Assembly (NCBI GenBank): GCA_050253075.1
Contig: JBFWJS010000005.1
Coordinates: 142,769 to 206,768, forward strand
Source of the DNA: Deferribacterales bacterium
GTDB taxonomy: Bacteria; Chrysiogenota; Deferribacteres; Deferribacterales; Geovibrionaceae
DNA length: 64,000 nt
Reading direction: 5' to 3'
The notes under the pieces are model-generated. The model was not told the origin of the DNA, ran no database searches, and saw nothing but the letters and a program-made list of their open reading frames with translations. How positions within the stretch are numbered: position 1 is the stretch's first letter; the number at the start of each line of letters is the position of its first letter. Both the position numbers and the translations under genes were made by a program. Below are positions 17,432-42,426 of this stretch, piece by piece.

Positions 17432-18538
17432 TCAGATCACAGGCACGCCGAACCTTTTCGCCACCTCAGCCTTATCCACATCAAAGCCGAGCTCTATAGC
17501 ATCTTTTATAACATCCCAGTCGGCCTCCACCTTCATATCCAGTATGAAAGCAGGCACAGGCGCATCGCCGAAGTTCAGATCGACTATCCATCTAAGCAGT
17601 GTCCTCGTAAGCGTCTCCGACAGCGCCCCCGCTATCTTATAGCTCTTTGTCTGCAGTGTCTCGAGATGCTGCTGAGCCAGAGAATACGAGCCGTTTGTGG
17701 ATGTGTCGCTGGTGAGTATCTCGCCTGTCACGGCCTTTGATATCTCCGTATTGCATATGTTCACCAGCTCGGAAAAGTCCGCCGATGTACCCTTTGTCTC
17801 CAGCACCTGCACGCTGTCCACATTTGCCAGAGCCACAGCTGCATCTGACTGTATATTATAAAGATTTTCTGCCAGTTCTTTTGCCCTTGCCCTGCTGTCT
17901 GCATCGTCTATGGAGTCAAATAGAGCGAGCACCGTCGGCACGCCGTACTTCTCTGCCACTGTCAGCCAATACCTGAACCCCGCCTTTTTAAACATCCACG
18001 GCCAGTAGCATTTTGACAGAACGGGTGTGCCGTAGGGGTTCTCATTCTTCGGGCTGTTTCGGTGTACGACAAACTTGTACTCCTCCTCCAGAGGTATAGA
18101 CACGGCGCCGTCCGCCAGTGCCAGCCCGCCGTCGCTTGTGAATGCAAACCTTGAAGGCTTCCGCCCCATAGCGTTCACGGGTATCCAAGCCCCTTCTCTC
18201 TCTTCCCATATGATCTCTATCACGCTGAAGCCGTATTCCACGGCCATCATCATATCCTGCAGAAGCTGTTTCACGCCGAGCCCGTTCAGACAATCCTTCA
18301 CAAATGCGGCTATACCTGCGGATTCGTCGTCCATATCCTTCGCACGCACGTCCCACTTCATGGCAAAGACCCTGTCTTTCAGCTGTTCGAGCTTTGCGTG
18401 TATGTGGGCATCCTGAAGCATCTCGTCAAAGATGCTCATGTTCACCCCTGTCTTACCGAAAAGCACGTCTGGGTTTGTCATCATCCCCATAGACGTCACG
18501 TCTGTATTCTTTGTCAGCACACTTGTTAATCTGCTCAT
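17432..18538 (-). CDS. Phage portal protein, Mu gp29/DUF935-like
   Basis: DAHI..LEQ.K, YGFSVIEIIW, NPYGTPVL..CYWPW.FK, AEKYGVP, EISKAVTGEILTS; follows terminase genes. Confidence 0.88.
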   Translation of the reverse strand: MSRLTSVLTKNTDVTSMGMMTNPDVLFGKTGVNMSIFDEMLQDAHIHAKLEQLKDRVFAMKWDVRAKDMDDESAGIAAFVKDCLNGLGVKQLLQDMMMAVEYGFSVIEIIWEEREGAWIPVNAMGRKPSRFAFTSDGGLALADGAVSIPLEEEYKFVVHRNSPKNENPYGTPVLSKCYWPWMFKKAGFRYWLTVAEKYGVPTVLALFDSIDDADSRARAKELAENLYNIQSDAAVALANVDSVQVLETKGTSADFSELVNICNTEISKAVTGEILTSDTSTNGSYSLAQQHLETLQTKSYKIAGALSETLTRTLLRWIVDLNFGDAPVPAFILDMKVEADWDVIKDAIELGFDVDKAEVAKRFGVPVI

Positions 18539-18553
18539 ATCTATCTCCTTTCA

Positions 18554-19954
18554 TTAATATTTTTTGAACATATCTCCGCTCTTTCGCCCCGCTCCCGAGA
18601 ATGACGCCGAAGGCTTCACCCGTCTTTCCGTCTGGCTGAGAGCCTGTGTCATGGCATCCACCATGTCGTCATTTTTCCCGCCCGGGAATAATGCCGCCTC
18701 GTCCATCAGCTCCTCGGAGAACTTTGCCCCCCGTTTCAGATAGACATTCCCCGCCTCGAGCATAGGCGTGACGGCTATCGCCCTCGCTGTCTTGCTCCCC
18801 TGCGGATTCACGGGGATGAGCCCCTGTATCTCATTTTTCAGAGCGGATATCACAGCGGGGCCGTTCGCCTTATCTTCAATGTATTTAGCACGTGCCTGCG
18901 GGTACTTTTCCGTCATCATGCGCAGGGCTCGCAGGGCAGACATAAAGTCCATCCGCCCACGCACCTGATCCACAAGGTATCTCTCCGTGCCCCGAATCCC
19001 CCACACCTGACCGACCACAAAGTCTGAGCCGTCACCTCCGGAGAATGTCATATCCCACGACTGCACCATCTGCTCAAAGGCAGGCTCCGCATCGTAAAAG
19101 CGGAACCACGACTTTTTGAAAACTGCTCCGTCCTCGGGGGCTGGTCTCTGCTGATAGAGTGCGTTCCAAACACGGGAGCCCACTGCGGAGCGTATCTGTG
19201 CGAGGGCGTCTTCGTCATATTTCTCAGCCCAGAGCGGTTCACCCACGGTACGGAATGCCTCGTCCTCCTCTGCTATTGCGGGGAAGCTGACCACCTGCCA
19301 GCCGTCTCTGTCGGCATTCAGCAGTCTGCCTGCGAGGTCGTCCTCGTGCCAGCGGGTGAGTATGACGACTATCCGTCCCCCCTTCTCTATCCTTGTGTAC
19401 AGGGTGGACTGATACCAGTCCCACACCTTGTCACGATAGTTCTTGCTGTCGGCGTCCTCCTGATTTTTAAACGGGTCGTCGATGATGAGCAGGTCGCCCC
19501 CCATCCCCGTTATCGAACCGCCAACCCCCGCTGCGACATAGCCGCCGCCGTCTGCGGTCTCCCATCTGTCTGCTGCCTTTGACCTTCCGCTCAGCCCAGT
19601 GCCGAACGTCAGGCGGAATTTTGGATCTGCTACGATATCCCGCACCTTTCTGCCGAAGTTCTCCGCAAGTCGGGCACTGTATGATGTGGCTATCACCCGC
19701 TTTGTCGGGTGTCTGCCCAGAAACCAAGCGGGGAAACGCACGGATGCCAGCTCGCTCTTCCCGTGGCGCGGGGGCATGAGTATCATCAGCCTGCCGTCAG
19801 TCCCTGCCTCCAGCTCGGTGAGCTTATCCGCCAGCAGTCGGTGGTGCCAGTTCGGCTCGTATCCTCTGTATGTCAGCTTACAGAACGGGATGAGGCTCTC
19901 TCGGGCGAGCTTCAGCGCATAAAGTTTTTCAAAGTTTTCACTGCTTAGCTTCAT
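18554..19954 (-). CDS. Phage terminase large subunit
   Basis: MPPRHGKS Walker A, LLIIDD Walker B, TRWHEDDL, ALYQQRP, IEDKANG, NDDMVDAMTQA nuclease motif. Confidence 0.93.
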   Translation of the reverse strand: MKLSSENFEKLYALKLARESLIPFCKLTYRGYEPNWHHRLLADKLTELEAGTDGRLMILMPPRHGKSELASVRFPAWFLGRHPTKRVIATSYSARLAENFGRKVRDIVADPKFRLTFGTGLSGRSKAADRWETADGGGYVAAGVGGSITGMGGDLLIIDDPFKNQEDADSKNYRDKVWDWYQSTLYTRIEKGGRIVVILTRWHEDDLAGRLLNADRDGWQVVSFPAIAEEDEAFRTVGEPLWAEKYDEDALAQIRSAVGSRVWNALYQQRPAPEDGAVFKKSWFRFYDAEPAFEQMVQSWDMTFSGGDGSDFVVGQVWGIRGTERYLVDQVRGRMDFMSALRALRMMTEKYPQARAKYIEDKANGPAVISALKNEIQGLIPVNPQGSKTARAIAVTPMLEAGNVYLKRGAKFSEELMDEAALFPGGKNDDMVDAMTQALSQTERRVKPSASFSGAGRKSGDMFKKY

Positions 19955-20387
19955 GCATTATCGCTTTGGCATCCTCTACGCTCAGGTTATCCAGCTCACT
20001 CATAAGGTCGGCTATATTACCGTCAGCAGATTCGTCTTTGAGGAATTCGTCGGGGGATTTGCCTATGCAGATGTCCTTATAGTTTTTCACTGTTTTCGAA
20101 TGCAGTTCCACATCACGCAGATTCTCACACTCGTTGAGGAGTACATCCGCCTTTTCCAGCCCTGCCATTGTGCTGTTGCATATGGCATCCAGCATCTTCA
20201 CCCGATGATTTTTCAGCCTTCGGATTGTCTTATCCGTTTCGGGGCGTTTCCATTTTTCGGCATCGGCTCTGTTCTTCACCGTCTCTGTTTTTATGCCGTA
20301 TTCCTCTGACAGCTCGGACAGGTCATATACACCGTCCTCGTATTCACTGCGCATGGATGTCCATGTTTCCTTCGTTATTCTGCCCAT
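19938..20387 (-). CDS. Probable terminase small subunit
   Basis: N-terminal HTH (W..MRSEYEDG..LSELSEEYGI..TVKNRA..EKW), 149 aa, overlaps terL start. Confidence 0.75.
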   Translation of the reverse strand: MGRITKETWTSMRSEYEDGVYDLSELSEEYGIKTETVKNRADAEKWKRPETDKTIRRLKNHRVKMLDAICNSTMAGLEKADVLLNECENLRDVELHSKTVKNYKDICIGKSPDEFLKDESADGNIADLMSELDNLSVEDAKAIMHEAKQ

Positions 20388-20411: not shown

Positions 20412-20465
20412 GGATTCTACGCAGAAATTTGAATTAATATGTTTAAACACGATAGACTTAGAAAC
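20412..20465 (-). promoter_or_regulatory. Putative activator-dependent late promoter of packaging operon
   Basis: Minus strand GTTTC-N14-TTAAACATAT-N17-TAGAATCC; same layout at 30260-30313. Confidence 0.7.
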
Positions 20466-20499
20466 ACAGATCGGTGAAAATTAATACTTTCGTTTTCAA

Positions 20500-21639
20500 A
20501 TGAACACAGGTGATATATACTATTTAAAACGAGAGTCAGAGTGTGCCTATATGATCAGAAAAGTTATTACAGACGTCTATGAAGACATCCATTTCAGTGA
20601 TAAATACGACACTGAGCAGATAAACCTGCTGCTGAAAGAACTGGACGTGCGCCATGCGCATTTCTCCGGGCTGCCTATCGTGCCCGAGGTTCGCAGCTTC
20701 CTTAACGGCGAGCTCCGCACACAGTCCATATACTCCACCGCCGCAATCGGAAAGCCCGATATGGAGGAGGAAGACGTGCGCAATTTCCTCGCAGGGAACC
20801 CGCACGAGCTGGACGAGACACGCTCCCGCATAGTGAATAACATCAGGCGCACATTTGAATTCGTCGATAAAAACAGAACGACTTTCGAGCTGACCACCGA
20901 AAACCTGCGCAAGCTCCACATCATGCTCGTGATAGACACGGCTGAGGGGCTCCCCGGCGTATACAGATCTAAGGACCGCTCAGAGGTAAACATAGACTAT
21001 AAGCCCCCGAGGGGCTCTATGGACGAGCTGACCAAAGAATTCTGCGACTGGTTCGCCAGCTCCGACATGCAGAAGCATCACCCTGCCGTTAGGGCGTTTC
21101 TCGCTCATTACCACATAGGTATGCTTCAGCCTTTCAGCAACGGCAACGGGCGTGTGGCACGCACTCTGGAGGCTATCGTGCTGGAGAACGCAGATATGCC
21201 GTACCTCACCCATGTGCTGTCTCAATATTATAAAAGAAACAGAAAAGACTATATAAAAGCATATATCAAAAACGAAAAGACGGGCGGATTCGACATGACG
21301 CCGTTCCTCGCATTCTGCCTCGAGGGCTCCGTGCGTGCGTATAAGCTGATAACAGACATGGCTGTCACAGGGCTCCGTGCCATCAGCGTGCGTGAATACA
21401 TCCGCAGACTCAGGACAGAAAAGAAAATCACCGAACGCCAGCGTGACCTGCTGGAGATAATATATCAGTACGACAAGCCATTCGACCTGCACGACCTGCT
21501 CACGAACCCTATATTCGCAGGGCTCTACCGCAGTGTGACAGAAAATACCGCACGCAATGACATAAAGCGCATGAAAGAACTGAGCCTCGTGACACAGACT
21601 CAGGGCGGATATATCTTTAACCGCTTCGTGCTCGGATAG
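20500..21639 (+). CDS. Fic-domain protein with degenerate active site and C-terminal winged HTH (start may be 20551)
   Basis: SIYSTAAI, PGVYR, LQPFSNGNGRVAR; C-terminal VTENTARNDIKRM; similar layout to 9898-10986. Confidence 0.8.
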   Translation: MNTGDIYYLKRESECAYMIRKVITDVYEDIHFSDKYDTEQINLLLKELDVRHAHFSGLPIVPEVRSFLNGELRTQSIYSTAAIGKPDMEEEDVRNFLAGNPHELDETRSRIVNNIRRTFEFVDKNRTTFELTTENLRKLHIMLVIDTAEGLPGVYRSKDRSEVNIDYKPPRGSMDELTKEFCDWFASSDMQKHHPAVRAFLAHYHIGMLQPFSNGNGRVARTLEAIVLENADMPYLTHVLSQYYKRNRKDYIKAYIKNEKTGGFDMTPFLAFCLEGSVRAYKLITDMAVTGLRAISVREYIRRLRTEKKITERQRDLLEIIYQYDKPFDLHDLLTNPIFAGLYRSVTENTARNDIKRMKELSLVTQTQGGYIFNRFVLG

Positions 21640-21645
21640 GTGCTT

Positions 21646-22536
21646 ATGTATCTGTGCTTCGACATAGGCGGGACAAACATCAAATCCTGTCTGACAGACG
21701 AAAACGGCAAATGCCTCGATAAGATATCTATACACACACCGAAGGATTACGGCGATATCCTCTCGATACTCATATCCTCTGCCGAACGTATAAGCGACTT
21801 CAAAGCCTGTGCTGTAGCCGTACCGGGGACATGCTCGCCTTCATCGGGCGAGGTGCTCTTTGCTCCGAACCTGACAGCACTGAACGGCAGAAATATCAAG
21901 AACGACCTCGAAAAGGCTCTGAACAAGCCGGTATTCATAGAAAACGATGCAAACCTCGCCGCTCTAGGCGAATACTACTTCATTGAGAAAGATAAGGTGA
22001 AGAACATGATATTCCTCACCATAGGCACAGGGCTCGGAGGCGGAGCAGTGCTGAACGGAGAACTGCTCACATCAGACATCTCCCTCTTTGAAGCGGGGCA
22101 CATAAACCTCATCCCCGACGGACGCCTCTGCGGATGCGGTAAAAAGGGATGCCTCGAAACATACGCCAGCATCGGCGGGATAATGAAGACATATAAAGAA
22201 CTCTCCGCAAGGGGTGAGGCAGACAATGTGAACCAGATATACACCGCTGCCAAAAACGGCGACAGGGCAGCACAGCTCACCTTTGAAGTTTTCGGCGGAC
22301 AGCTCGGCATAGGCATGGCTAGCCTCGTGAACATACTGGTCCCGCAGAAGATAAAGATAGGCGGAGGCATATCCGAGATGGCAGACGCCTTCCTCCATCA
22401 CACCATGAAGATCTTTTCGAAAAACATATATCCCGCTTATAAACAACGTGTTTCCATAGAGCTCTCCGCTTTGAAAAACGAGGCAGGGCTCAAAGGGTGC
22501 ACAGCCCTCTCCATCACTAATCTTTCGTCAAAATAA
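21646..22536 (+). CDS. ROK family sugar kinase (glucokinase-like)
   Basis: FDIGGTNIK, ENDANLAALGE, TIGTGLGG, EAGH, CGCGKKGCLE. Confidence 0.9.
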   Translation: MYLCFDIGGTNIKSCLTDENGKCLDKISIHTPKDYGDILSILISSAERISDFKACAVAVPGTCSPSSGEVLFAPNLTALNGRNIKNDLEKALNKPVFIENDANLAALGEYYFIEKDKVKNMIFLTIGTGLGGGAVLNGELLTSDISLFEAGHINLIPDGRLCGCGKKGCLETYASIGGIMKTYKELSARGEADNVNQIYTAAKNGDRAAQLTFEVFGGQLGIGMASLVNILVPQKIKIGGGISEMADAFLHHTMKIFSKNIYPAYKQRVSIELSALKNEAGLKGCTALSITNLSSK

Positions 22537-22585
22537 ACCTTGTGTTTTCCGCTCTATATGAAATATTATCCCTACGGAGCACAAA

Positions 22586-23398
22586 TTGGAAAAGCGACTT
22601 ATCACAGGCATCACACCTACGAAATGCCTTAACTGGCTATACAGAAAGAACCCCGAAGTTTATGTCTATCCACCCGCCGTTGCGGATGTCGACGGAGAGT
22701 ATTATCAGCTGAACAGCTTCGAACATTACTCTCAGGAGTACTTCATCATCGAGGCAGACAGTGTGGAAGATGCGCTGAACATATCCGTAGACCTCTACGG
22801 AGCAGCCAGCCTGAACACCACAGAGCTGGCTTACCTTACCGCTGTGTGCGATAGACAGGAACTGGATAAGTCAAAGATAACAGCATACGAAACCCACGGC
22901 ATAAAGGGGAAGAAAAACTTTGAAACCCTGAAGGCCATCACATTCATGTGCCCGTCGCTGCAGAAATACATCTCGGTGAAAGCTATCCCGCTGAAGACCA
23001 TAGCCGTCTTCGACAAGCTCGAGAAGGATTTCCGCAGGTTTGTGAAAAACACTATCGACGACAGAGAGCTATCCGTGCAGGATTTCCGTAAGATGGTGAA
23101 TCTGCTGTTTGACATGCAGTCGAGCGCAACTCCGGAAGACATGGGCCCCGACCTGCTCAAAAAACTGGCCGAAAAGAAAGATATGACACGCATCAGCTTT
23201 ATGAAGGAGATGCAAAACCTCACTAAGGGTTTGAGTGCAAACGTCTTTTCAGAAAACAACTTTGAAACGGGCGAGCTGACATTCAGCATAAAGGCATCAG
23301 GGATGAAAGAGCTGAAAGAAAAACTGGAAGCTCTGTCAGAAGACGAAAATAAAATAGAAAGAATATACAGGTTTTTGGATGAGCAGGATATTTGTTGA
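22586..23398 (+). CDS. Hypothetical protein coupled to SPL-family radical SAM gene
   Basis: 270 aa ORF, TTG start with GGAG RBS, overlaps next gene. Confidence 0.7.
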   Translation: MEKRLITGITPTKCLNWLYRKNPEVYVYPPAVADVDGEYYQLNSFEHYSQEYFIIEADSVEDALNISVDLYGAASLNTTELAYLTAVCDRQELDKSKITAYETHGIKGKKNFETLKAITFMCPSLQKYISVKAIPLKTIAVFDKLEKDFRRFVKNTIDDRELSVQDFRKMVNLLFDMQSSATPEDMGPDLLKKLAEKKDMTRISFMKEMQNLTKGLSANVFSENNFETGELTFSIKASGMKELKEKLEALSEDENKIERIYRFLDEQDIC

Positions 23399-24458
23399 TA
23401 AAGCGGCGGCTGAAAGCGAAGTAGCCGCAAACGCCATGAAGAACTGCTCCGACGTCAGCTTTGTCGGCAGTGCCGAAGAAGTCCCCGATAACAAGAACTG
23501 CATATATATCACCGCAGGCCCAAACACCTTTGTACACAGGTGCCCCGCCACAAAGATATACAGATGCTGTGACTACTATGTGGCAGATGTAGCCGAGGGA
23601 TGCCCCTTCGACTGTACATACTGTATATTACAGTCATACCTGAACCACGAATATATAAAGGTCTATTCAGACTTTGAAGGGATAAAGAACGATATACTGA
23701 ATCTGCCGAAAGACAGGTTTTACCGGCTGGGCACGGGCGAACTCTCCGACAGCCTCGCCCTCGACCACATATTCAACTTCAGCGGATTCATAGGCGAAAC
23801 AGTGAATAAAGCGGAAAACCTCCTCTTCGAGTTCAAAACCAAATCCGCAAACATAAAGAACCTCCTGAACATAAACCCGAAGAATATGATGGTCTCATGG
23901 AGTATGAATCCACAGGAGATAATTGATAAAGAAGAGCACGGAGCGGCAAAGCTGGACAACAGGCTGAAAGCCGCAAACCTCTGCTCCCAGTACGGATACA
24001 AGATAGGCTTCCACTTCGATCCGCTGATATACTACGACAATTTCGAAGCGGGATACGCCGAAGTCATCAGAAAGATGGCAGAGTCTGTCCCCGAAAGCTC
24101 TGTGGAATACATATCTGTCTCCACTTTCCGCTTCATCCCCGAGCTCTTAGACATTGTAAGGGGCAAGTTTGACCGTTCGCTGCTGCTCCAGAGCGAATAC
24201 GTGAAGACAATGGACGGAAAGATGCGCTACTTCAAGCCTGTTCGTGTACACATGCTTGACTTCTTTGTAAAAGAGGTGCGTAAATACTGGAAGGATGTTT
24301 TCATATACTTCTGCATGGAGCATGAATCCGTCTGGAAAAAGATAATGAAGTACGACCCCGGTGAGCGTGAAGACTTTGAAAAGTTCTTCCCATGCCAGAT
24401 AAAACATACGCCTGACAGCAGGATAACTCATTCTGAACAAGTAGAAGAATCTGAATAA
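23379..24458 (+). CDS. Spore photoproduct lyase-family radical SAM protein
   Basis: GCPFDCTYCILQSY (CxxxCxxC), GTGELSDSLA, EFKTKS, SWSMNP, GFHFDP. Confidence 0.85.
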   Translation: MSRIFVDKAAAESEVAANAMKNCSDVSFVGSAEEVPDNKNCIYITAGPNTFVHRCPATKIYRCCDYYVADVAEGCPFDCTYCILQSYLNHEYIKVYSDFEGIKNDILNLPKDRFYRLGTGELSDSLALDHIFNFSGFIGETVNKAENLLFEFKTKSANIKNLLNINPKNMMVSWSMNPQEIIDKEEHGAAKLDNRLKAANLCSQYGYKIGFHFDPLIYYDNFEAGYAEVIRKMAESVPESSVEYISVSTFRFIPELLDIVRGKFDRSLLLQSEYVKTMDGKMRYFKPVRVHMLDFFVKEVRKYWKDVFIYFCMEHESVWKKIMKYDPGEREDFEKFFPCQIKHTPDSRITHSEQVEESE

Positions 24459-24504
24459 GAAAGATAAATAAGGTCACATATCCTTCGCATCTGCTCAGGA
24501 TGAC
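24427..24504. repeat. REP-like palindromic element, copy 3 (overlaps 3' end of the SPL-like gene)
   Basis: CTCATTCTGAAC...GAAGAATCT...ATATCCTTCGC...CTCAGGATGAC. Confidence 0.7.
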
Positions 24505-24578
24505 CCGGCGAGCATTACATTTCCCCTTTTATTAAAAGCGGAATCTGCTTATAATATGCCCGTTTCGATGGAGGAATA

Positions 24579-25769
24579 ATGGGTTTTTTCAGCATATTTA
24601 AAAAGAAGAAAGACGAGGTAGCCGAGCAGGAAGAGCAGGTTATCGAAAATGATATAGAAACCGAAGAGGAAGGCGAAGAGCCCGAAGCTGTCGAGGTGCA
24701 GGCGGAAGAACCTGCCGCAGTGGAAGAAGCTACAGACGAAGAGCCTGAAGATGATGAATCCGAGGACGAATCTGAGGACGAAGATGAAGAGGAAGAGCAG
24801 TCCGAAGCTGTAAAGCAGGACTATGCCGAGAAGCCTGCCGTGAAGCAGGGCTTCTTTAAAAGGCTGAAAAAGGGTCTCTCCAAAACATCCGGCAAGCTGG
24901 TCGGCGGGATGGAGAGCATCTTCACAGGGAAAAAGAACATCGACGAAGACCTCCTAGAAGAGCTGGAAGAGCTGTTCATCACATCCGATGTGGGCGTCCC
25001 CACCACAATGAAGATCATAGACAACGTACGCAGCGAGCTTTCCCGCAAGGCTCTGAAAGACCCACAGGAGCTCAAGGCCGAGCTTAAAAAACAGATCAAA
25101 AATATTCTCGATATACCGAACGACCTGAACACCACCGAAGATAAGCCATACGTGATAATGGTGCTCGGCGTGAACGGCGCAGGAAAGACCACAAGCATCG
25201 CAAAGATGGCTAAACGCTTTAAAGAGCAGGGACTTTCCACATGTCTCGCCGCAGGGGACACATTCCGTGCTGCCGCCATAGACCAGCTGTGCGTATGGGC
25301 AGACAGGGTGAAAGTACCCGTGGTGAAACAGTCCGAAGGGAGCGACAGCGCCGCTGTCATATTCGACGCTATACAGTCCTGCAGATCAAAGGGTATACAG
25401 GTACTCATTGCGGATACTGCGGGAAGACTGCATAATAAATTTAACCTGATGAAAGAGATGGAAAAGATAGTCCGCATATGTAAGCGGGAGCTGCCTGATG
25501 CGCCGCACGAGATACTCCTTGTGCTGGATGCTACCAGCGGACAGAACGCCCTCTCTCAGGCACAGAAATTCCACGAAAGCGTGGGCATCACAGGGCTGGT
25601 ACTCACAAAGCTGGACGGCACAGCAAAGGGCGGTGCGGTCATCGGCATCGTGGACGAGCTTCAGATACCTGTGAAATTCATAGGTTTCGGTGAAGGGATA
25701 GACGACATGAAGCCTTTCGATGCGGAAGACTTCGTCAATGCCCTCTTTGACAACGACACGGAGAACTGA
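24579..25769 (+). CDS. ftsY: Signal recognition particle receptor FtsY
   Basis: Acidic N-terminus, GVNGAGKTTSIAK, DTFRAAA, DTAGR, TKLDGTAKGG. Confidence 0.96.
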   Translation: MGFFSIFKKKKDEVAEQEEQVIENDIETEEEGEEPEAVEVQAEEPAAVEEATDEEPEDDESEDESEDEDEEEEQSEAVKQDYAEKPAVKQGFFKRLKKGLSKTSGKLVGGMESIFTGKKNIDEDLLEELEELFITSDVGVPTTMKIIDNVRSELSRKALKDPQELKAELKKQIKNILDIPNDLNTTEDKPYVIMVLGVNGAGKTTSIAKMAKRFKEQGLSTCLAAGDTFRAAAIDQLCVWADRVKVPVVKQSEGSDSAAVIFDAIQSCRSKGIQVLIADTAGRLHNKFNLMKEMEKIVRICKRELPDAPHEILLVLDATSGQNALSQAQKFHESVGITGLVLTKLDGTAKGGAVIGIVDELQIPVKFIGFGEGIDDMKPFDAEDFVNALFDNDTEN

Positions 25770-25776
25770 TCATAAC

Positions 25777-26115
25777 ATGCGCTTCCTATTTATTTTAATT
25801 GCTCTGGCATGCTTAATGCCTAGCCAAGCCCCCGCACAGGAGAATATCCGCGGGATATTCTTTGAAAACGATTCACCGCACATGCTCGGCGTACGCCTTA
25901 TCAACAGATACAGCAGAGTGGAGGATCACTATCTTTTCGACCCGAACAGCAAAGAGCACGTGGACACAAAGGTCGAAACATTCACACTCTCTGCACAGCT
26001 GATAACACCCAGCTATCAGATAGACTGCTGTGAATGGACACAGATACACAGCGGCGACACCGTCACCATAGAGTATCTGCCCGACCGCGACAGATGCTGG
26101 TGTAAGATAAAATAA
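25777..26115 (+). CDS. Small exported hypothetical protein
   Basis: MRFLFILIALACL..APA signal-peptide-like N-terminus; four Cys in C-terminal half. Confidence 0.6.
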   Translation: MRFLFILIALACLMPSQAPAQENIRGIFFENDSPHMLGVRLINRYSRVEDHYLFDPNSKEHVDTKVETFTLSAQLITPSYQIDCCEWTQIHSGDTVTIEYLPDRDRCWCKIK

Positions 26116-26367
26116 TCAGTCTATATTCATACAGCTCCGCTCCTGAAGGAACTCCTCAAGGCTCTTTTTCGGCACACGCCATCTGCCGTTTCCGTCTATG
26201 CTGGTGTTCCATGCGATGAGCTTTGCGCTTTTTATCCATCTGCGTACCGTGATGTGACTGACCTGAAGTATCTTCGCCACCTGATATATGGTCAGGTTGC
26301 TCCCGGGCATTGATTCCACCTGTCTGCTTATACTATCCTCATTCCATACTTTGCACGGAGCCGACAT
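26116..26367 (-). CDS. Excisionase/MerR-like helix-turn-helix DNA-binding protein
   Basis: LTIYQVAKILQVSHITVRRWIKSAKLIA...GRWRVPKKSLEEFL; GGAGG RBS before ATG 26367. Confidence 0.85.
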   Translation of the reverse strand: MSAPCKVWNEDSISRQVESMPGSNLTIYQVAKILQVSHITVRRWIKSAKLIAWNTSIDGNGRWRVPKKSLEEFLQERSCMNID

Positions 26368-26433
26368 ACCGCACCTCCAAATAACATAATTTATTTGTAC
26401 ATAAATACACAATATGCATGTATTTTTCAACAC

Positions 26434-26464
26434 ATATTTTCTGTTTGTTTTTCACAGAATATAT
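26434..26464. promoter_or_regulatory. Inverted repeat (putative operator) between divergent HTH genes
   Basis: ATATTTTCTGT-N9-ACAGAATATAT. Confidence 0.45.
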
Positions 26465-26479
26465 CTGTATATATTATAT

Positions 26480-26839
26480 ATGGGTGTAGGACACAGATTA
26501 AAAGAGCTCCGCAGAGAGCTGAAGATCAGTCAGAAAGAACTAGGAAATCTGCTGAATGTCGCACAGCAGGTGGTCAGTTATTATGAAAAAAGCGGTAATA
26601 TAGATGCGTCAAAACTGTCCATCATCTCTGAAAAATACAGCATAGATATCAGATACTTCTTCGAAGACAAACCTTTAAACTCTTACAGAGGCACAAACCT
26701 TCAGCTTAATTCCTCTTCAGACTTTATAATCCCCGCCGGATGGGACGACATACTCCATGAAATGGCGGAGATAGAATACGGCAAGGTGCGGATAATAGAA
26801 TCTGTTGTCAGAACATTGATTAAAGAATTTAAGAATTAA
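26480..26839 (+). CDS. XRE/cI-like HTH transcriptional regulator
   Basis: MGVGHRLKELRRELKISQKELGNLLNVAQQVVSYYEKSG; no RBS before ATG 26480 (possibly leaderless). Confidence 0.85.
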   Translation: MGVGHRLKELRRELKISQKELGNLLNVAQQVVSYYEKSGNIDASKLSIISEKYSIDIRYFFEDKPLNSYRGTNLQLNSSSDFIIPAGWDDILHEMAEIEYGKVRIIESVVRTLIKEFKN

Positions 26840-26872
26840 CACTTTAAATTTCATACGGGGGAAAACCGGCTG

Positions 26873-28981
26873 ATGGATATTAGCGGCGAAAACGCCCCAT
26901 TTATTTTACGTTTTTCTAAATACATGTATCGAACAAACCCGAGAATAACAAGAGGAGGACCGCCCAGAACAGCCTAAGGCCAGCCTCTGAATATAGATAA
27001 AGCCGTAGCAGGCATACGAAATGCGCATACAGCATACTGCCGTTTCGACTTTAATAAAGACCTCCCACTTTACTCACTGCTGACCTTGAAAAAAGGCTCA
27101 CTCTCAAAGTCGAACAGATACCACTTCCTGAAAACCGCAGATATAAAGCTGACGGGCAGTTTGTCCCCTGAGGACCTCATCTTTGCGCTAAAGGACGATG
27201 CAGATATCTCCAGATTTGAAAACATACTGCGCTACAGTCGAAACATAAACTTCCGAAAGTCTCTGACCCATATGTCAGACATAAGAGCCCTACTGCCGGA
27301 GGATAAGCTGAAAAACTCAGTTACCGAAGGCGACATAGTAATCCAGCTGTTTAATAACGACAACTACGGCAAACTACTCCACTTTCTCAGAGACGGGCTG
27401 AATATAAGAGCAGGCGACATCTTTTCCGTAGGCAGTCTGAACATCATAAAAGCAAATATAAACGACCTGTCTAAGCTGGAAACTCTAGCATCACACTCTC
27501 TGATAAGGTCTGTGGAAAGCGCTCACAGCATCCATCTGGAAGAGCATTATATAAGGCACGCTCCGCTGCCGCTGAACTGTGTGAAAGAACGAGCCCTTCA
27601 AAAAGCATATCCCAAGGCCGCCCTGATAGACTCAGGCGTGGCATCTGACTCCCTGCTGAAAGAGTGGGAGATATCCACGGAAAGCTACATCCCTGATGAA
27701 AAGCGAAATCCAGCCCACGGCACTTTTGTCTGCGGGCGAATGCTTCAGGAAGGGGAAGAGTTCGGCGGGATACTGTACCTGAACGCTGAAATGATGCCTT
27801 CGGACGGAATTTTATCCATCAGCGATTTCTACAGAAACATGACAGACATCCTGCAGAAATACTCAAAGACCATAAAAGTTTATAACATCTCCATGGGTAC
27901 ATCTGCTCTGCTCCGAGACGAATTTTCCTACTCCGCATACATACTGGACACACTGCAGAAGGAATATGACGTGCTCTTCATAATATCCGCAGGCAACTGT
28001 GCACCTGACGGGGAGGCTCCGAGGTCACTCACTGCACCTGCCGAAAGCGTACACTCCGTCAGCGTCGGTTCCGTGGCGCACACAGACACAAATATCCAGA
28101 AGAAGCACACCCCATCCCTTTTCACAAGGCACGGCCCGGCACCGCTCGGATTCATAAAGCCCGACATCGCCGCATACGGAGGGGCTCATGCTGAGCATTT
28201 CGGCAGGCTGAAACCTGTGGGAGTATTCAGCATCGGCGTGCAGAACGAGCTGGCAGAAGACATCGGAACCTCCCACGCCGTCCCTATGGTCACATCAAAA
28301 GCGGCAAAGCTGTATCACCAATACAGCCATGCATTTAAAAGCCCCGACATAACAAAAACATTGCTGATACACGATGCATTCCTAAAAAAAAGCTCCAAAG
28401 AGCCCGACATATACTGCGGATACGGCATATCTGCCGATGGAGACAATGACGAAAACCATGTAACATACATCCATCAGGGGCTGGTAAAGCCTGAGCAGAT
28501 AGTAGAACTGCCCGAGATACCTATCCCACCCGATATGATAAAGGACGGAGCCGTCTATGGAGGCATCGTCCTGACACTTGTTTATAAGACACACGTGGAC
28601 ATAGCTTTCCCTCATTACTACTGCATGACAATGCTGGATATATCACTCGGGTATTACGACGGGGGGAAGTGGATATCTGTGATGACGGCGAAAGATACGG
28701 CGGGGCTCCCCAAAGGAAAAGATGCACAGGAGCTCTTTAAATGGCAGCCTGTAAAAGTGTTCAGCAGGGTATTTAAAAATAAGAAAATGCCCGACAAGCT
28801 ATTACTAAGAATAATACCGTCTAAAAGAGATTTTTATGACAAAATGGAAGACATTTCATACTCATTCGCTATATCTTTTGTGAGCAAAGAGGAAAACCTG
28901 TTGAAAGGTATTCTCGACAGACCGTCTGATTTTTCACACATTCTCGAATCTGCCCATGACTTGTGGAAAACATGTGGATAA
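26873..28981 (+). CDS. S8 subtilisin-like serine peptidase; in-frame TAA at 26975-26977 (possible pseudogene; open frame from TTG 27086)
   Basis: Catalytic motifs IDSG, HGTFV, SAGN, GTSHAVP; ATG 26873 is in frame, with one stop at codon 35. Confidence 0.78.
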
Positions 28982-29133
28982 TAAAAGCGTTAATTAGCCA
29001 ATAAACCAACACTTTTCAACAATACAATAAAAAAACCTTATTTATCAATTATATAACAAAAAACCCCGCAAACACGGGGTTTAGGTTGTCAAGCACTTTT
29101 TTTTCAACAAAATTTTGGAAAACATGTTTACAA
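28962..29133. repeat. DnaA-box cluster element with IHF-like site, copy A
   Basis: TGTGGAAAA 28962, TGTGGATAA 28973, TTTTCAACA 29013 and 29101, TTTGGAAAA 29114, TATCAATTATATA 29043; homologous to 49680-49851. Confidence 0.75.
29058..29082 (-). terminator. Intrinsic terminator-like hairpin downstream of TPR gene
   Basis: Minus strand AAACCCCG-TGTTTG-CGGGGTTTTTT. Confidence 0.55.
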
Positions 29134-29220
29134 AATAGTCAGAAACCTTGTGTCTTCACAGTTTCGACAAAACTGTTCATTTTTTGACCATTAAAAAAAA
29201 TCATATTTTAACGGTAAAAA

Positions 29221-30174
29221 TCACCACAATCTGAGCTTTGTACCTTTTTCGTAATTTTGTATGTCGTATCTGAAATCTTCTTTCTGAACCAGATCCTGTG
29301 TCTGAGCTATTGCTTCGTCCAATACCTTTATTGCGTTTTCAAAATCGTCGGTCTCGGCATATGCCGCAGCCATCACTTCCGCATAGTGGACAACGTTCAG
29401 GTCATAGAGTTCTTTTGCTATCTTTACGGCTTTTTCGCCGTTTCTGTATGATTCCAGAGGGTTTGTGGAATATACCCATGCGAGCATGCGCTTCGCCTCG
29501 AGGTTCGTCTTGTCTATTTTAATGGCCTTTTCAAGGTCGTTAACGGCCTGATTTGCGTCTTTCTGCTTATAGAACACCTTCGCCCTGAGCAGATAAAGAT
29601 CAGAGTTTTCAGGGGATTTCTGCATGGCTTTCAGGGTGTATGTCTTTGCCTCGTCATACTTGCCCATGTTGAATAACAGATCGCCCATAGCAACGAGGAA
29701 ATCTGCGCTCTCTCCGCCCCATCTCTCGGCACCTTTGAGGTCCTTTGCCGCCTCTGCATAGTCGCCCATGGCCACATGTGCTTTTGCTCTCTCCACATAT
29801 GCCACAGGGTATTTCTTCCCTGCTTTATCTATGACGGTTCTGAAATCTATCACCGCATCCTTATAAAAGCTGAGTTTCACGTATGCACGTCCCCTTTTCA
29901 GGTGATATTTAGCATCGCCGTGGTTTCTGATGGCTTTTGTATAGTTGTTTACAGCCTCGCCGTATCTGCCGAATGCGTAGTCTATATCCGCAAGTCCTTC
30001 ATAGTAATAATCCGAATGAACAGACTTCGTAACATTCTTTTCATAATTCTGAACCGCTTCTTCGTATGTCGGCGCTTTCAGCGCAGCATCGAGCCCCGCC
30101 GTATACTCTTCCTGATTAACAGTACAGCCGGCAGTCATAAGAACAAGCGAAAACAAAGCAATCAAAACTCTCAT
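29221..30174 (-). CDS. Tetratricopeptide-repeat lipoprotein
   Basis: Signal peptide with lipobox TAGC; multiple TPR repeats (EAVNNYTKAI, DAVIDF, QAVNDLEKAI). Confidence 0.85.
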   Translation of the reverse strand: MRVLIALFSLVLMTAGCTVNQEEYTAGLDAALKAPTYEEAVQNYEKNVTKSVHSDYYYEGLADIDYAFGRYGEAVNNYTKAIRNHGDAKYHLKRGRAYVKLSFYKDAVIDFRTVIDKAGKKYPVAYVERAKAHVAMGDYAEAAKDLKGAERWGGESADFLVAMGDLLFNMGKYDEAKTYTLKAMQKSPENSDLYLLRAKVFYKQKDANQAVNDLEKAIKIDKTNLEAKRMLAWVYSTNPLESYRNGEKAVKIAKELYDLNVVHYAEVMAAAYAETDDFENAIKVLDEAIAQTQDLVQKEDFRYDIQNYEKGTKLRLW

Positions 30175-30259
30175 CAAAGCACCTCTCTGGTCGTGTCTAA
30201 GTGAATACAATACCTTTTATTAGATTCCATTGAAAGAGTAAAGTTCAGCCCCCACAGCC

Positions 30260-30313
30260 GTTTCAGGTTTAACCGCCCTTAAACATATCCATTATTTCAT
30301 TCCTGTACCATCC
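30260..30313 (+). promoter_or_regulatory. Putative activator-dependent late promoter of head-tail operon
   Basis: GTTTC-N14-TTAAACATAT-N17-TACCATCC; same layout as 20412-20465. Confidence 0.7.
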
Positions 30314-30343: not shown

Positions 30344-31036
30344 ATGAAACTGGAACTGGCGAAAACCGGAAACCATAACGGCATCACCATAACAGAAGAA
30401 GACCTGAGAGACATGGCAGCGACCTTTACAGGCGATGTGCCCGTCACAATAGGTCACGAGGCCGACGACTCCATGCCCGCATACGGCTGGGTCACCGCTC
30501 TAGAAGTGTCCGAAGACGGACAGACACTCACAGGCGAACTGGAGCTGAACGAAGAGCTCCAGCAGGCTATCGCAGAGGGACGTTACAAGAACTGGAGCAT
30601 AGGCGCAGGCAGAAACGCAGACGAGCAGATGTATCTGCACCATGTGGCGTTCCTCGGCGCTGTCCCCCCGATGATAAAGGGGCTGAAGCTCATCGAGATG
30701 GGCGACAGGTCAGACATCGTCACATTCGCCATAAACGGCGGATGCTCACTCACCCTCTCCGATGCGGAGCTCTCCGAATACGCATCACTGCGTAAGGAAA
30801 AGAAGAGCGCACTCATCAAAAAGCTCTCCGACGCATCAGCGGGGAAGATCCCCTTCGGCAAGCGTGAGGAGCTCATCAGATTCGCAGACTCTCAGCTCTC
30901 CGCAGGCGGCGAAGAGATAGTCTCCATGCTGGCGGAGATATTCGAAAGCGTGAAACACCCAGTGAGAGAAGGGATATCCCAAGCCATCAGAACAAAAAAC
31001 GCTGAAACGTCCGTAAACGTATTCAGCAAAATCTAG
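30344..31036 (+). CDS. Phage prohead protease/scaffold, Mu gp32(I)-like
   Basis: PVTIGH..SMPAYGWV..L, GRYKNWSIG, YLHHVAFLGAVPP.IKGL; AAGGAGG RBS. Confidence 0.8.
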   Translation: MKLELAKTGNHNGITITEEDLRDMAATFTGDVPVTIGHEADDSMPAYGWVTALEVSEDGQTLTGELELNEELQQAIAEGRYKNWSIGAGRNADEQMYLHHVAFLGAVPPMIKGLKLIEMGDRSDIVTFAINGGCSLTLSDAELSEYASLRKEKKSALIKKLSDASAGKIPFGKREELIRFADSQLSAGGEEIVSMLAEIFESVKHPVREGISQAIRTKNAETSVNVFSKI

Positions 31037-31045
31037 GAGGAATAA

Positions 31046-31408
31046 ATGGCAACAGTAAACGGCGTTATCGGTCAGCAGACCATCACAGACAAATCTGTCA
31101 TCGACGACAGACACCCCGCAGTGATCCGCTTTATGCAGTTCAAAGCAGACAACGGCATCATCGGAGCAGGCGAGATACTCGCACTGGATTCTAACGGCGA
31201 CGTGGTCTCATACGACCCTGCATCAGGCGGAACAGAGGCATCACCTATCGGCGTGTGCTCATCACAGACAGACACGGCGAAAGATACCGCAGGCGGAGTC
31301 ATCATCCATGGAACAGTAGTAGGCGCAAGCCTTCTCACCCTCGGCGTAAAAGCTGTCTCCGCAGAGATAGAAGCCCTCGAGGCAAACACACTCATCTGGT
31401 CATTCTAG
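31046..31408 (+). CDS. Head decoration protein (lambda gpD-like)
   Basis: 120 aa, GEILAL..G..VSYDPASGGTEASPIGV pattern; between protease and capsid genes. Confidence 0.65.
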   Translation: MATVNGVIGQQTITDKSVIDDRHPAVIRFMQFKADNGIIGAGEILALDSNGDVVSYDPASGGTEASPIGVCSSQTDTAKDTAGGVIIHGTVVGASLLTLGVKAVSAEIEALEANTLIWSF

Positions 31409-31420
31409 GAGGATACATAA

Positions 31421-32404
31421 ATGATACAGCTTGATCTCAGCAGATATTTCACAACAGACTCACTCATCAAAGCACTCACAAACATGCCGGAGCTTAAATC
31501 CCCCGTCATGGACAGCATCTACACGGCGGACAAACGCAGAAACCACCCTCTGCCGACAGTCTCCGTCAGCGACCTCCAACAGGCGGTTAAGAACATAGCT
31601 ATCACAAAAAGAGGCGGAGAACCTGTGCCTGTCTATGAAGAAAGCATGAACATCACACACATCGAACCTCAGCCGTTCAGACCTTCCGAAAGACTCAACG
31701 GAGTGGACGTGAATAACCTCAAGCTCCTCGACGAGACAGGCGTGGAGCTCCTCGTAAATAACAAGATAGACAGACTCCGCCGCATCGTCAGAGCATCCAC
31801 AGAGGCTATGGCGGCACAGTCGCTCACAGGCTCTATCGCATACCCTATGGCTATGGACGGCGGATACGGCACATACAGCGTGGACTTCGGCTCCACACTC
31901 AGCCACTCCGTCGGCACTGCATGGACAGACTCGGGCATCACACTCGACGCCGTCCTCGCAGACCTCATCAGCATGGAGGCAAACATCCAGGCTGAGACAC
32001 ACTACGGCTCCGACATCCGCTTCTGGGCGGGTCAGGACGCCTTCATGGCTCTGGCAAAGATCGTCCAGGACGTCAACAACACAGGCATCACGGGCATGAT
32101 AGACGCAAGAACCATCAACATAGCAGGATTCAGGGTAGAGCTTCAGAACAGCTCATACACAGACCTCGCCACAGGCTCGCAGACAAAGGTCGTGGATACT
32201 TCAAAGGTGATGGCGTTCGCCGCCGATGCACCTTTCGAGCTGGTCTACTCTGTCATAGACGACCTCGACAGCAACCTTACTGCCATGCCTTTCTTCGTAA
32301 AGAGCGTGAAAGACCCGAGGTCCTCAAGCATCGAGATCATCGCAGAGAGCAAACCGCTCCCTGTTCCGTTCACAAAGGGTATTTGCTGGGCAACAGCCGT
32401 ATAA
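31421..32404 (+). CDS. Major capsid protein (lambda gpE-like family)
   Basis: 327 aa; LRRIVRASTEAMAAQSLTG.I, VDFG, C-terminal IIAESKPLPVP typical of gpE-type capsids; strong RBS. Confidence 0.82.
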   Translation: MIQLDLSRYFTTDSLIKALTNMPELKSPVMDSIYTADKRRNHPLPTVSVSDLQQAVKNIAITKRGGEPVPVYEESMNITHIEPQPFRPSERLNGVDVNNLKLLDETGVELLVNNKIDRLRRIVRASTEAMAAQSLTGSIAYPMAMDGGYGTYSVDFGSTLSHSVGTAWTDSGITLDAVLADLISMEANIQAETHYGSDIRFWAGQDAFMALAKIVQDVNNTGITGMIDARTINIAGFRVELQNSSYTDLATGSQTKVVDTSKVMAFAADAPFELVYSVIDDLDSNLTAMPFFVKSVKDPRSSSIEIIAESKPLPVPFTKGICWATAV

Positions 32405-32420
32405 GGCTCGACTCAAAAAT

Positions 32421-32449
32421 CGGCAGGGGTGCTCTGATGCGCCCCGCCG
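32421..32449 (+). other. GC-rich stem-loop after capsid gene (no U tract)
   Basis: CGGCAGGGGTGC-TCTGAT-GCGCCCCGCCG. Confidence 0.5.
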
Positions 32450-32470
32450 CCCTATCAAAAGAGGTAAACC

Positions 32471-32827
32471 ATGCTGATAGACATATATGAGCTTCAGGAA
32501 ATGATACAGACAGAGGACTACGACGCCATATGCCGTGGTGACGATGCCGTTGCGGAAGAATCACTGGAATCTGCCCGTGCGTATGTAGGACTGGCCGCTG
32601 AGAAATTCGGCATTGAATACGACGAGGAAGACCCAGCCATAAGGCTCGCCGTGAAAAAGTGGGCTCTGGCGCAGATGTACATCTTCGCAGCGGAGTGGGA
32701 AACAGCCCAAAGGTATAAGGACGAATGCAACGAAGTGCTCGCACCACTTGCCCCCGCATCCGAACAGGGGGGAAGAGTCTACTCTTCGACCGTTTCGGGG
32801 AGCACCTCGTGGAAAGGATATTACTGA
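32471..32827 (+). CDS. Probable head-tail connector (Mu gp36/DUF1320-like)
   Basis: 118 aa helical protein right after capsid gene; AQRYKDEC..L pattern. Confidence 0.6.
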   Translation: MLIDIYELQEMIQTEDYDAICRGDDAVAEESLESARAYVGLAAEKFGIEYDEEDPAIRLAVKKWALAQMYIFAAEWETAQRYKDECNEVLAPLAPASEQGGRVYSSTVSGSTSWKGYY

Positions 32828-33198
32828 TGAAGACAGCTCAGGAGATAAAGCAGGCGATAGCCGACTCGCTGAATACCTGCGGCGTGTTCGACTCTGTGCT
32901 GACACCGTCCGACAACCGAAAGGATGCGACCATAATGCGTGAGCCGTCTGCTGCGGTCTATTACAGCGGATGCGTGATAAGGGACGATAACGGCGTGCAG
33001 GTGACAGAATACGCATACATCATACGCATGAAGTTCCTGAAAATAGGCGTAAACGAAACAGCCGACGACATAGAACTCGCCGTTAACGCCCTGAAAGAGC
33101 TGGAGCCCGCATCCCTCGCCCAGTCGGGCAAAACAGACACAAACAGCAGATCGGCATCATACACCATAGACATAACATTTGCGGGGTGCAGGGGATGA
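32827..33198 (+). CDS. Probable neck/tail-completion protein
   Basis: TGATG coupling; PSAAVYYSG, C-terminal YTIDITF; position in operon. Confidence 0.5.
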   Translation: MKTAQEIKQAIADSLNTCGVFDSVLTPSDNRKDATIMREPSAAVYYSGCVIRDDNGVQVTEYAYIIRMKFLKIGVNETADDIELAVNALKELEPASLAQSGKTDTNSRSASYTIDITFAGCRG

Positions 33199-33563
33199 TA
33201 CGCATATCAGACATAACACTCCCAAAGTCCGCAGTGTGGGCAAACGAGATATCAAACAGCACACATAAAACCGAGCGGACAGCATGCCCCTACGGGACAG
33301 AAGTCATCTTTGCAGACATACAGGATGCTGAGATAGACATATACATACCAAAGATATCTGGCGAGCTGACCCGTGCGGACGTGCAGAGGCTGAAAGCTCT
33401 AGCAGACGGCACAAACGAGATAAGCATAAACATAAACGGCACAGACAAAACGTGCGTCTTCAGGCATTCGGACACCGCACTCGACCTGCACCCGATAAGC
33501 CCGAAACAGACACAAACGCACACCGACAGCTACTACGGATATATAAGGCTTCTGGAGGTTTAA
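33195..33563 (+). CDS. Putative distal-tail/baseplate-proximal protein
   Basis: ATGA coupling; I.DITLP..AVW.NE and LTRADVQRLKALA resemble siphophage proteins encoded right after tape measure genes (recall, unverified). Confidence 0.5.
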   Translation: MIRISDITLPKSAVWANEISNSTHKTERTACPYGTEVIFADIQDAEIDIYIPKISGELTRADVQRLKALADGTNEISININGTDKTCVFRHSDTALDLHPISPKQTQTHTDSYYGYIRLLEV

Positions 33564-34532: not shown

Positions 34533-34539
34533 GTGACAC

Positions 34540-35769: not shown

Positions 35770-35770
35770 T

Positions 35771-37411: not shown

Positions 37412-37896
37412 CAGTGAGTTTTGTCACCGCAGATGATGAAAGCAAGATGACCATAGAGAGCGACCCCGACAGAAACAAAGACTATACGGGCAGGACAAAG
37501 ACAAAATTCCGCTACGGCGACACGGCGTACTTCAGAGTATACAGCCATGAGGCCGAAAAGATATCCGCATCCGCATCCGACGGCGAGCTCACCGACATGG
37601 GGATATACACAGGCACTATAGCAGACGAGGTGCTCCCGTTCATCACGGAACAGACGGCAGACACAGAAAAGCCCGTTAAAAAGATAAGCGGATATGAATG
37701 GCTGGGGAACAGCCTCGGCAGTGTGACGGCATACGACAGCTACAGCGTGCAGGCATCATCCGCCCCCACAGAGTCTAAGATCGCCGCACTCTCTCTCACA
37801 TACCAGACTACATACAGGCTCTTCGGGCTGACACTGGCGAAGCGGGATATATCCGAATACCCCGTCATAGTATATGTGAGGTCGGGCGATGTCTGA
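37399..37896 (+). CDS. Hypothetical virion-operon protein
   Basis: GGAGG RBS, overlaps both neighbours. Confidence 0.6.
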   Translation: MAKVTVSFVTADDESKMTIESDPDRNKDYTGRTKTKFRYGDTAYFRVYSHEAEKISASASDGELTDMGIYTGTIADEVLPFITEQTADTEKPVKKISGYEWLGNSLGSVTAYDSYSVQASSAPTESKIAALSLTYQTTYRLFGLTLAKRDISEYPVIVYVRSGDV

Positions 37897-40643: not shown

Positions 40644-40656
40644 AAGGAGAACGGGA

Positions 40657-41871: not shown

Positions 41872-41878
41872 GTGATTC

Positions 41879-42193: not shown

Positions 42194-42426
42194 TGACCAT
42201 AGAGATATCAGACATCATACAGACACTGGGGAGCATAGCGAGCCTTGTGCTCATCCCCATATGGCGCTCCATCAATGCACTGCGGGAAAGCCAGAACAAA
42301 ACGAACATAATCCTGGCTCGTGACTACGTGAGCAAAAAGGAGTGCCGGGAGAGGCACGGACAGCTCCACAGCGACATGATAAGGATACACGCACGCATAG
42401 ACGAGACAACGGATAAAAAGTATTAA
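42190..42426 (+). CDS. Small holin-like membrane protein
   Basis: 78 aa, one N-terminal hydrophobic helix then charged tail; last gene of virion operon. Confidence 0.45.
   Translation: MMTIEISDIIQTLGSIASLVLIPIWRSINALRESQNKTNIILARDYVSKKECRERHGQLHSDMIRIHARIDETTDKKY

Follow-up and report, generated by a model that had tools for sequence, protein, structure and literature searches.

The 64,000-nucleotide stretch of DNA analyzed here (the window), from the 3.04-Mb genome of a bacterium of the order Deferribacterales, family Geovibrionaceae (genome G000), contains two separated operons of virion genes. The minus-strand operon is composed of the genes for the small terminase (terS), the large terminase (terL) and the portal, and the plus-strand operon extends from a head protease through tail genes to position 42426. 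Between the two are housekeeping genes and a trio encoding an HTH_17-family protein, an XRE-family protein and an S8 protease. Judged from sequence, the two operons very probably share a regulated promoter. The overall explanation that fits best, for which we see slightly better than even chances, is that a direct-repeat promoter, driven by the HTH_17 protein, controls a split, family-wide regulon resembling a gene transfer agent (GTA). The original prediction, according to which a shared, probably activator-dependent promoter makes the two separated operons one system, is upheld and can be extended to lysis genes.

Both reported promoter sites were found at the claimed positions, i.e., 20465-20414 on the minus strand and 30260-30311 on the plus strand, with the pattern GTTTC-N14-TTAAACATAT-N17-TAnnAT. 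In the terS promoter the core repeat TTAAACATAT (20437-20446, minus strand) is predicted to span -39 to -30, covering the -35 position. Above it are a second and a third 10-bp repeat unit (20447-20466), with a C one turn above the core C and GTTTC (20461-20465) within the third unit, and 17 bp below it is the -10-like hexamer TAGAAT (20414-20419). In the promoter of the head-tail operon (plus strand) the third and second units (30259-30278; the second is TTAACCGCCC, and GTTTC is at 30260-30264) are followed by the core TTAAACATAT (30279-30288) and the -10-like hexamer TACCAT (30306-30311). The start codons of terS (20387) and of the protease gene (30344) are found 26 and 32 nt below their sites, respectively, each with a ribosome-binding site in between. 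As had been proposed, the -35 is non-consensus: its position reads ACATAT, and neither site passes a scan for the sigma-70 consensus.

A scan of the window with this pattern, allowing up to three mismatches, returned two matches, and 100 shuffled sequences returned none. In the whole G000 genome a 21-base template matched exactly twice, never with one to three mismatches and three times with four. Because the template was taken from both window sites, this test of genome-wide rarity is circular, and the non-circular support for the sites comes from conservation in orthologous regions of related genomes. The family sample comprised 16 Geovibrionaceae-level genomes (labeled Gnnn) of four genera, g1 to g4, of which g3 is presumably Geovibrio.

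In the 11 genomes of g1 and g4, core and -10 element are conserved at each of the 22 sites before terS and protease. The core 10-mer never departs by more than one base, TAnnnT follows after 17 bp (after 18 bp in three cases), and the sites are located 20-41 nt above the gene start. When sites at further loci described below are included, the g1 and g4 genomes provide 37 sites, which represent four loci in related genomes rather than 37 independent events. A -10-like TAnnnT box is found in 37/37 of these sites, in part by site selection. The position of upstream C residues, on the other hand, played no part in choosing the sites. In all 37, the base exactly ten positions above the core C is likewise a C, against a background of 24% (101 of 415 near-core 10-mers), and 23 of them have a C twenty positions above it, against 19% in the same background set. 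In 27 of the 37 sites the base after the second-unit C is A or G. Genera g2 and g3 harbor a variant of the motif with the same ACA-N20-TA geometry, and 9 of the 10 sites here also have the C one turn above that of the core. In the form ACAY-N4-TRACAA-N19-TATATT, four g3 genomes contain this variant exactly two times each, at the terS and at the protease operon, and G004 contains it once. From the phased C positions the array is read as two or three direct repeats with a 10-bp period, predicted to extend from -59 to -30, and GTTTC is better read as the third, most decayed unit of this array. The motif is retained at four unlinked places, where the spacers have diverged.

The original prediction had instead taken GTTT and AAAC as the arms of a dyad, i.e., a Mu-like late promoter with an inverted-repeat site for a dimeric activator of the Mor/C family. 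There are likenesses to such promoters. Mu late promoters, in the available text of PMC2582627, have a good -10 and a poor or absent -35 that is overlapped by the activator site, and for Pmom a displaced -35 with 19-bp spacing has been proposed. In addition, the portal, protease and capsid encoded in the window are 28-35% identical to those of a Mu-type prophage elsewhere in G000. The same source describes the site of Mu C as a 16-bp dyad centered at -43.5, whereas the proposed dyad measures 25 bp, and neither a conserved 16-bp dyad near -43.5 nor a conserved Mor/C activator was found here. GTTTC is exact in only 6/37 orthologous sites and in none of the 14 terS and protease sites of g4, and an inverted-repeat scan of the 37 sites gave no offset that stands out in all operon types. 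When the 16 genomes were scanned with the GTTT arm included, exact matches of the full pattern were confined to both sites of G000 and the terS site of G002, and the 2-13 one-mismatch matches per genome were no better than a reversed control. The Mor/C family (PF08765) was found in 3/16 genomes, those that carry the protease of a separate Mu-type prophage, and not in the other 13, including the single-contig genomes G002 and G007. This alternative is largely refuted by these data and we consider it highly improbable.

The direct-repeat signal also led to loci outside the window. In ten g1 and g4 genomes, scans gave 2-6 matches each, compared to 0-2 for the reversed control; of 16 extra matches examined, three were found before an orthologous endolysin gene and one before a small ribbon-helix-helix (RHH) gene, the rest being mostly non-orthologous. 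When a matrix was trained solely on terS and protease sites from the ten remaining genomes, the G000 sites of terS, the RHH gene, the protease and the endolysin ranked first to fourth, with scores of 33.6, 22.9, 21.7 and 21.4, the next site scoring 19.8, i.e., the margin for the last three is thin. The unlinked lysis gene that had been anticipated was thus found: an endolysin cassette with the same signal is present in 11/11 g1 and g4 genomes, with match scores of 11.5-13.5 compared to 8.5-9.0 at three unrelated lysozyme genes. In G000 this third promoter copy, with an 18-bp spacer, is located outside the window (G000:C7:63277-64036), before a PF00959 endolysin gene and a 59-aa phrog_402 gene; this second gene of the cassette was found by script in 10 of the 11 genomes. 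The head-tail operon of the g3 genome G007 itself contains an M15 endolysin gene together with a phrog_402 gene. The fourth copy precedes the gene for a 47-aa RHH protein (G000:C3:158361-158565), which, together with its site, is found in all four g1 (Denitrovibrio-level) genomes and in none of the other 12. Placement of the RHH gene under the motif possibly reflects feedback control. As a family-wide activator the RHH protein was rejected, being present in just 4/16 genomes.

Of the two helix-turn-helix proteins originally suggested as regulators, the one encoded at 26116-26367 (minus strand) is indeed the best activator candidate, while that encoded from 26480 is instead a repressor candidate. 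The former is an 83-aa HTH_17 protein of the BldC/Xis fold (PF12728, E 9e-13; dN/dS 0.01-0.03), the latter an XRE-family protein (26480-26839, plus strand; PF01381; open frame from 26414) encoded divergently from the HTH_17 gene and adjoining it in 16/16 genomes. Downstream of the repressor gene is that of an IetS-like S8 subtilase (27086-28981, plus strand), which may be a repressor-cleaving protease; the subtilase gene is always downstream of the repressor gene and has no neighboring gene for an IetA-type ATPase. The HTH_17 gene is single-copy in all 16 genomes and always part of this trio, even where 40 kb separate it from terS and the virion genes. An alignment of the 16 genomes delineates a switch region (26402-26470) with a sigma-70-like promoter of the HTH_17 gene (TTGAAA at 26425-26430, 17 bp, TATTTA) and conserved palindromic sites TAC(A)-N9-TGT in and around the promoter spacer (26404-26424 and 26453-26470), which may act as operators. 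The promoter and palindromes together suggest the layout of a repressed switch. The coding DNA of the HTH_17 gene is identical in two g3 species (G011 and G007) although their rpoB dS is 0.61, which suggests recent transfer of that stretch. On deposit for Denitrovibrio acetiphilus are an identical HTH_17 protein (WP_013011493.1) and a protein identical to the capsid of G002.

We favor the HTH_17 protein, with some reserve, as the binder of the repeats. The structure model of the protein superimposes on the BldC-DNA complex with an rmsd of 1.4 Å over 52 columns (TM-target 0.85) and also matches the Xis protein of Pukovnik, i.e., it has a stand-alone MerR-like winged-helix-turn-helix (wHTH) fold, and Thr27, Arg30 and Trp31 of BldC are retained in all family members, as counted on the alignment. 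According to the accessible text of PMC5859096, BldC binds head-to-tail to 9-bp direct repeats, where Arg30 contacts one C-G pair per repeat next to an AT tract, and the sites here likewise are tandem repeats with an AT tract and an invariant C-G, about one turn apart. BldC, RdfS and Apl are all small wHTH proteins acting on direct repeats spaced by about one turn (PMC5859096, PMC11963761 and PMC7498355, as far as available), and RdfS activates some promoters (PMC11963761, available part). The available parts of these accounts are not about virion or GTA genes, and the BldC unit is 9 bp. Unlike Xis-type regulators, the HTH_17 protein here is not accompanied by an integrase or an att site. A search for att repeats gave no evident candidate among the 20 largest of at least 60 repeat families, and no integrase or replication family was found among the window proteins scanned (44 with Pfam, 35 with PHROG). 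Between g1/g4 and g2/g3, residues of the recognition helix are exchanged (SHITVRR to NPLTVKR), and the clade with this exchange is also the one with the altered motif.

The same regulon and particle could also be controlled by a host response regulator of the OmpR/PhoB type, with the HTH_17 protein acting elsewhere or upstream. Such regulators bind tandem 10-11-bp repeats over the -35 region, and host two-component control of GTAs has a precedent in CtrA. The repeat geometry fits this alternative, and genes resembling sensor kinases are found just upstream of terS in G004 and G007, but these neighbors are absent in g1 and g4. Furthermore, the regulon is very small and phage-specific (each g3 genome has two exact sites, and in G000 the four sites rank at the top), and the variant of the motif goes with the HTH_17 clade and appears again alongside an HTH_17 homolog in genus g13 (see below), such that we consider a response regulator improbable and the HTH_17 protein the better candidate. 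An alternative sigma factor is not favored because the -10 element is TAnnnT in all sites, which was set against the general consensus sequences of such factors. Also rejected was the motif as a promoter of the divergent fic or TPR genes, because terS of g2 and g3 is without a divergent neighbor and the lysis site has other neighbors.

In the proposed mechanism the XRE protein would repress the HTH_17 gene through the palindromes in its promoter until induction, possibly via cleavage of the repressor by the neighboring S8 protease. The HTH_17 protein would then polymerize head-to-tail on two or three repeats, where the residue equivalent to Arg30 of BldC would read the TG/CG step at each conserved C, and, substituting for a -35 box, would recruit the sigma-70 polymerase. 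The resulting particle, with no tail tube or a very short tail, would package host DNA by headfuls and be released by the co-regulated endolysin.

The composition of the two virion operons bears on the nature of this particle. The minus-strand operon encodes terS (19938-20387, 149 aa; PHROG terS families, E 4e-5), terL (18554-19954, 466 aa; PF03237 and PF17289) and a Mu-type portal (17432-18538, 368 aa; PF06074, E 2e-86). On the plus strand, a Mu-type head protease/scaffold, a decoration protein and the major capsid protein (30344-32404, from Pfam and PHROG profile matches) are followed by candidates for a head-tail adaptor (118 aa) and a tail terminator (32827-33198, 123 aa), the two spanning 32471-33198 and assigned from gene order relative to the siphophages Ralstonia RS138 and Vibrio PG28; for the 123-aa protein this assignment is only a lead. 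The tail-tip module (33186-42426) encodes a phrog_4408 protein, proteins of 322 and 409 aa, a 546-aa protein with a baseplate-hub fold (35771-37411; structure model pLDDT 62, best E 9e-12), phrog_24905 proteins, a variable beta-helix spike candidate (40657-41871) and the products of two small genes. RS138 and PG28 have a similar order of terminator (phrog_209-like), phrog_4408, 322-aa tip protein, phrog_6079-like hub and phrog_24905, at about 25-33% identity in the tail module, but between terminator and tip these phages carry a tube (phrog_807), a chaperone and a tape measure, which are missing here. In the window there is no tube or tape-measure gene after the terminator candidate, and of the 16 genomes only G004 has a tube gene within the cluster. 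The G004 gene (G004:C2:287117-287815) is found between terminator and tip, still without a tape measure, and this genome is a possible intermediate in tail loss. Two tape-measure families, searched in five of the 16 genomes, gave no match in G002 and G007, each a single contig, and their matches in G000, G004 and G013 are located away from the cluster. The capsid had no match among 50,697 phage records, and a profile search with it retrieved 226 unnamed relatives. The Mu-type prophage mentioned above (G000:C1:586256-619374) is a separate, apparently complete transposable element with a Mor gene, a tape measure and sheath-like genes. The virion operons (17432-20387 and 30344-42426) have G+C contents of 0.54 and 0.52, compared to 0.47 in the rest of the window. 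Two genes for SoFic-like Fic-domain proteins are found at 9898-10986 and 20500-21639; in those g1 and g4 genomes that were examined, the second is encoded divergently from terS.

From this gene content it could be argued that the HTH_17-controlled, domesticated particles do not transfer genes and are decoys, adhesive or killing particles, or a lysis-coupled DNA-release device. The tape measure missing, for two families searched, from the two single-contig genomes, the scarcity of tube genes in the cluster and a spike gene that is strongly variable between genomes are in line with such a role. On the other hand, terS, terL and portal are kept at a dN/dS of 0.02-0.14, which argues for DNA packaging, the hub and tip proteins are kept, and the cluster has no sheath gene. 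We regard a particle without gene transfer as unlikely, and transfer of host DNA as fairly probable.

The virion genes appear to be inherited with the host. The terL, terS and protease genes are present in 16/16 family genomes, virion genes being single-copy, and the capsid gene is found in 16/16 family genomes and in 0/47 other genomes of the order. Identity of terL tracks kinship, at 78-82% within genus and 58-70% within family. Trees share with rpoB 9/9 (head), 7/9 (packaging) and 8/9 (regulators) splits in the 12 of 16 genomes in which rpoB was found, all differences being inside genus g3. Pairwise dN/dS values for six virion genes are 0.01-0.23 for pairs with unsaturated dS, i.e., the virion genes are under purifying selection. 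In the seven relatives annotated in detail, 10-36 kb separate the two operons, whose relative orientation varies, or each is placed on a contig of its own; including the other loci, distances are 10-40 kb or the loci are on separate contigs, and the lysis cassette of G002 is about 1.2 Mb away. A decaying prophage remnant, in which a duplicated late promoter is kept by descent only, would explain why no integrase, replication, tube or tape-measure genes are found near the cluster and why one terL (G001) is broken. Such a remnant is contradicted by the dN/dS values: synonymous sites are near saturation while proteins and motif are retained, the motif at four unlinked places with diverged spacers, and presence in 16/16 genomes. 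We give this explanation hardly any weight.

The viriform definition of GTAs by the ICTV, in the available text of PMC9662315, has six features. Three of these are found here, which makes the virion gene set a candidate GTA, host-domesticated, as far as genes can tell. The proteins are caudoviricete-derived (terminases, portal, capsid and hub fold; known here from genes alone); the genes are endogenized at three to four loci among housekeeping genes, in an arrangement that differs between genera; and they co-diversified vertically with the host, as judged from the comparison with rpoB. The definition further names a cargo of mainly random host DNA, a set of own genes that does not fit into a single head (on which the only observation here is the spread of the loci given above), and delivery of DNA to other cells. 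In the Caulobacter crescentus GTA, expression is controlled by the repressor RogA, the activators GafY and GafZ, and the integration host factor (IHF) (PMC11150451, available part). The same portion of that account describes a repressor over an unlinked activator and a main cluster with peripheral genes having a good -10 and a poor -35, as here, but also that GafY binds around -120 with IHF and that GafZ anti-terminates. Here, in contrast, the site abuts the -35 position and is a phased direct repeat, the candidate activator is an 83-aa HTH_17 protein, and the virion genes are Mu/siphovirus-derived and reside in another phylum. By analogy, the GTA candidate may work like the Caulobacter repressor-activator cascade with different parts.

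The HTH_17 link has support from beyond the family only in the Mucispirillum-level genus g13, where proteins of genome G028 are identical to deposited proteins of Mucispirillum schaedleri (WP_023276056.1). An HTH_17 homolog is encoded in 10 of 11 g13 genomes, divergently from an S24-type repressor in 10/10; this repressor carries its own S24 domain and has no S8-subtilase neighbor. The window capsid was not found in g13. Instead, an unrelated terS-terL-portal-capsid cluster is present, with terL in 13/13 genomes at 82-100% identity. In G028 this cluster (L222:13738 to L223:2104) encodes terS, terL, portal, a scaffold candidate, an SU10-type capsid and an Ig-domain protein; an adaptor-like operon (L281:5309-8432) is located 180 kb from it, and the S24-type repressor and HTH_17 genes (L224:7177-8305) form a third locus. 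Two or three 9-bp repeats and N19-21-TATATT precede terS at 10 of the 11 g13 loci with upstream DNA; the strict pattern occurs once per genome in 5/5 genomes, and a second site precedes the SU10-adaptor-like operon in three of the five. The cluster is a candidate second GTA, podovirus-type and split. Five genomes of families that lack both clusters were searched with the HTH_17 profile, and one of them gave a single weak match, the other four none; the HTH_17 matches in g19 sit behind a replication-type gene. Matches of terL in genera g15, g18 and g19 of family f7 and in family f5 were set aside here, as the surrounding genes are different or the locus is incomplete.

A number of observations weigh against the overall interpretation. 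A matrix trained on all sites places an unrelated G000 site (21.5) above the endolysin site (19.6), the G004 terS site has neither the upstream C nor the g3 pattern, and the second unit of terS sites is, apart from TC, poorly like the core. For the HTH_17 protein, the E-values are weak in the fold comparison with BldC (0.014-0.04) and range from 2e-4 to 5e-3 with the profile, the link to the motif rests on co-occurrence and fit, the change in helix and motif is one event on one branch, and the repeat period is 10 bp in the family compared to 9 bp in BldC and g13. In G001, codon 124 of terL is an in-frame TGA and the gene for the S8 protease is split in two; these breaks are due to decay or an assembly error. 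A tube-less particle may not inject DNA. In g13, the relaxed pattern is not enriched over the reversed control, the adaptor match is below the Pfam cut-off, and in g15, which has a related terL in a different gene context, HTH_17 was not found in 2/2 genomes.

Among the matches listed in a search of the open literature, with subscription papers outside its scope, no description of such an element in these bacteria was found. The main text of a mouse virome preprint does not mention Mucispirillum or Deferribacter, and its supplements, which were outside view, may bear on the matter; the genome paper of D. acetiphilus makes no mention of phage.

Independent GTA lineages recognized so far are few, and genetics alone led to their activators. 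In the present case, a promoter signature yields the whole regulon and points to a candidate one-gene switch, and it led to the unlinked lysis cassette and, in Mucispirillum, a gut genus, to another candidate system. If the proposed explanation is correct, this family of anaerobic bacteria would extend the known GTAs by a lineage from a further phylum, a new class of activator and a naturally tube-less, siphovirus-derived particle, and the signature would offer a search route to split GTAs missed by prophage finders. More tentatively, as we consider it possible but doubtful, two families of Deferribacterales may each carry an undescribed, chromosome-split GTA derived from unrelated phages (one Mu/siphovirus-derived, with tape measure and tube lost, in Geovibrionaceae, and one SU10/podovirus-type in Mucispirillum), with homologous BldC/Xis-type activators and phased direct-repeat promoters. 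If so, the regulatory circuit would have outlasted the exchange of the particle, or would have been re-recruited across it.

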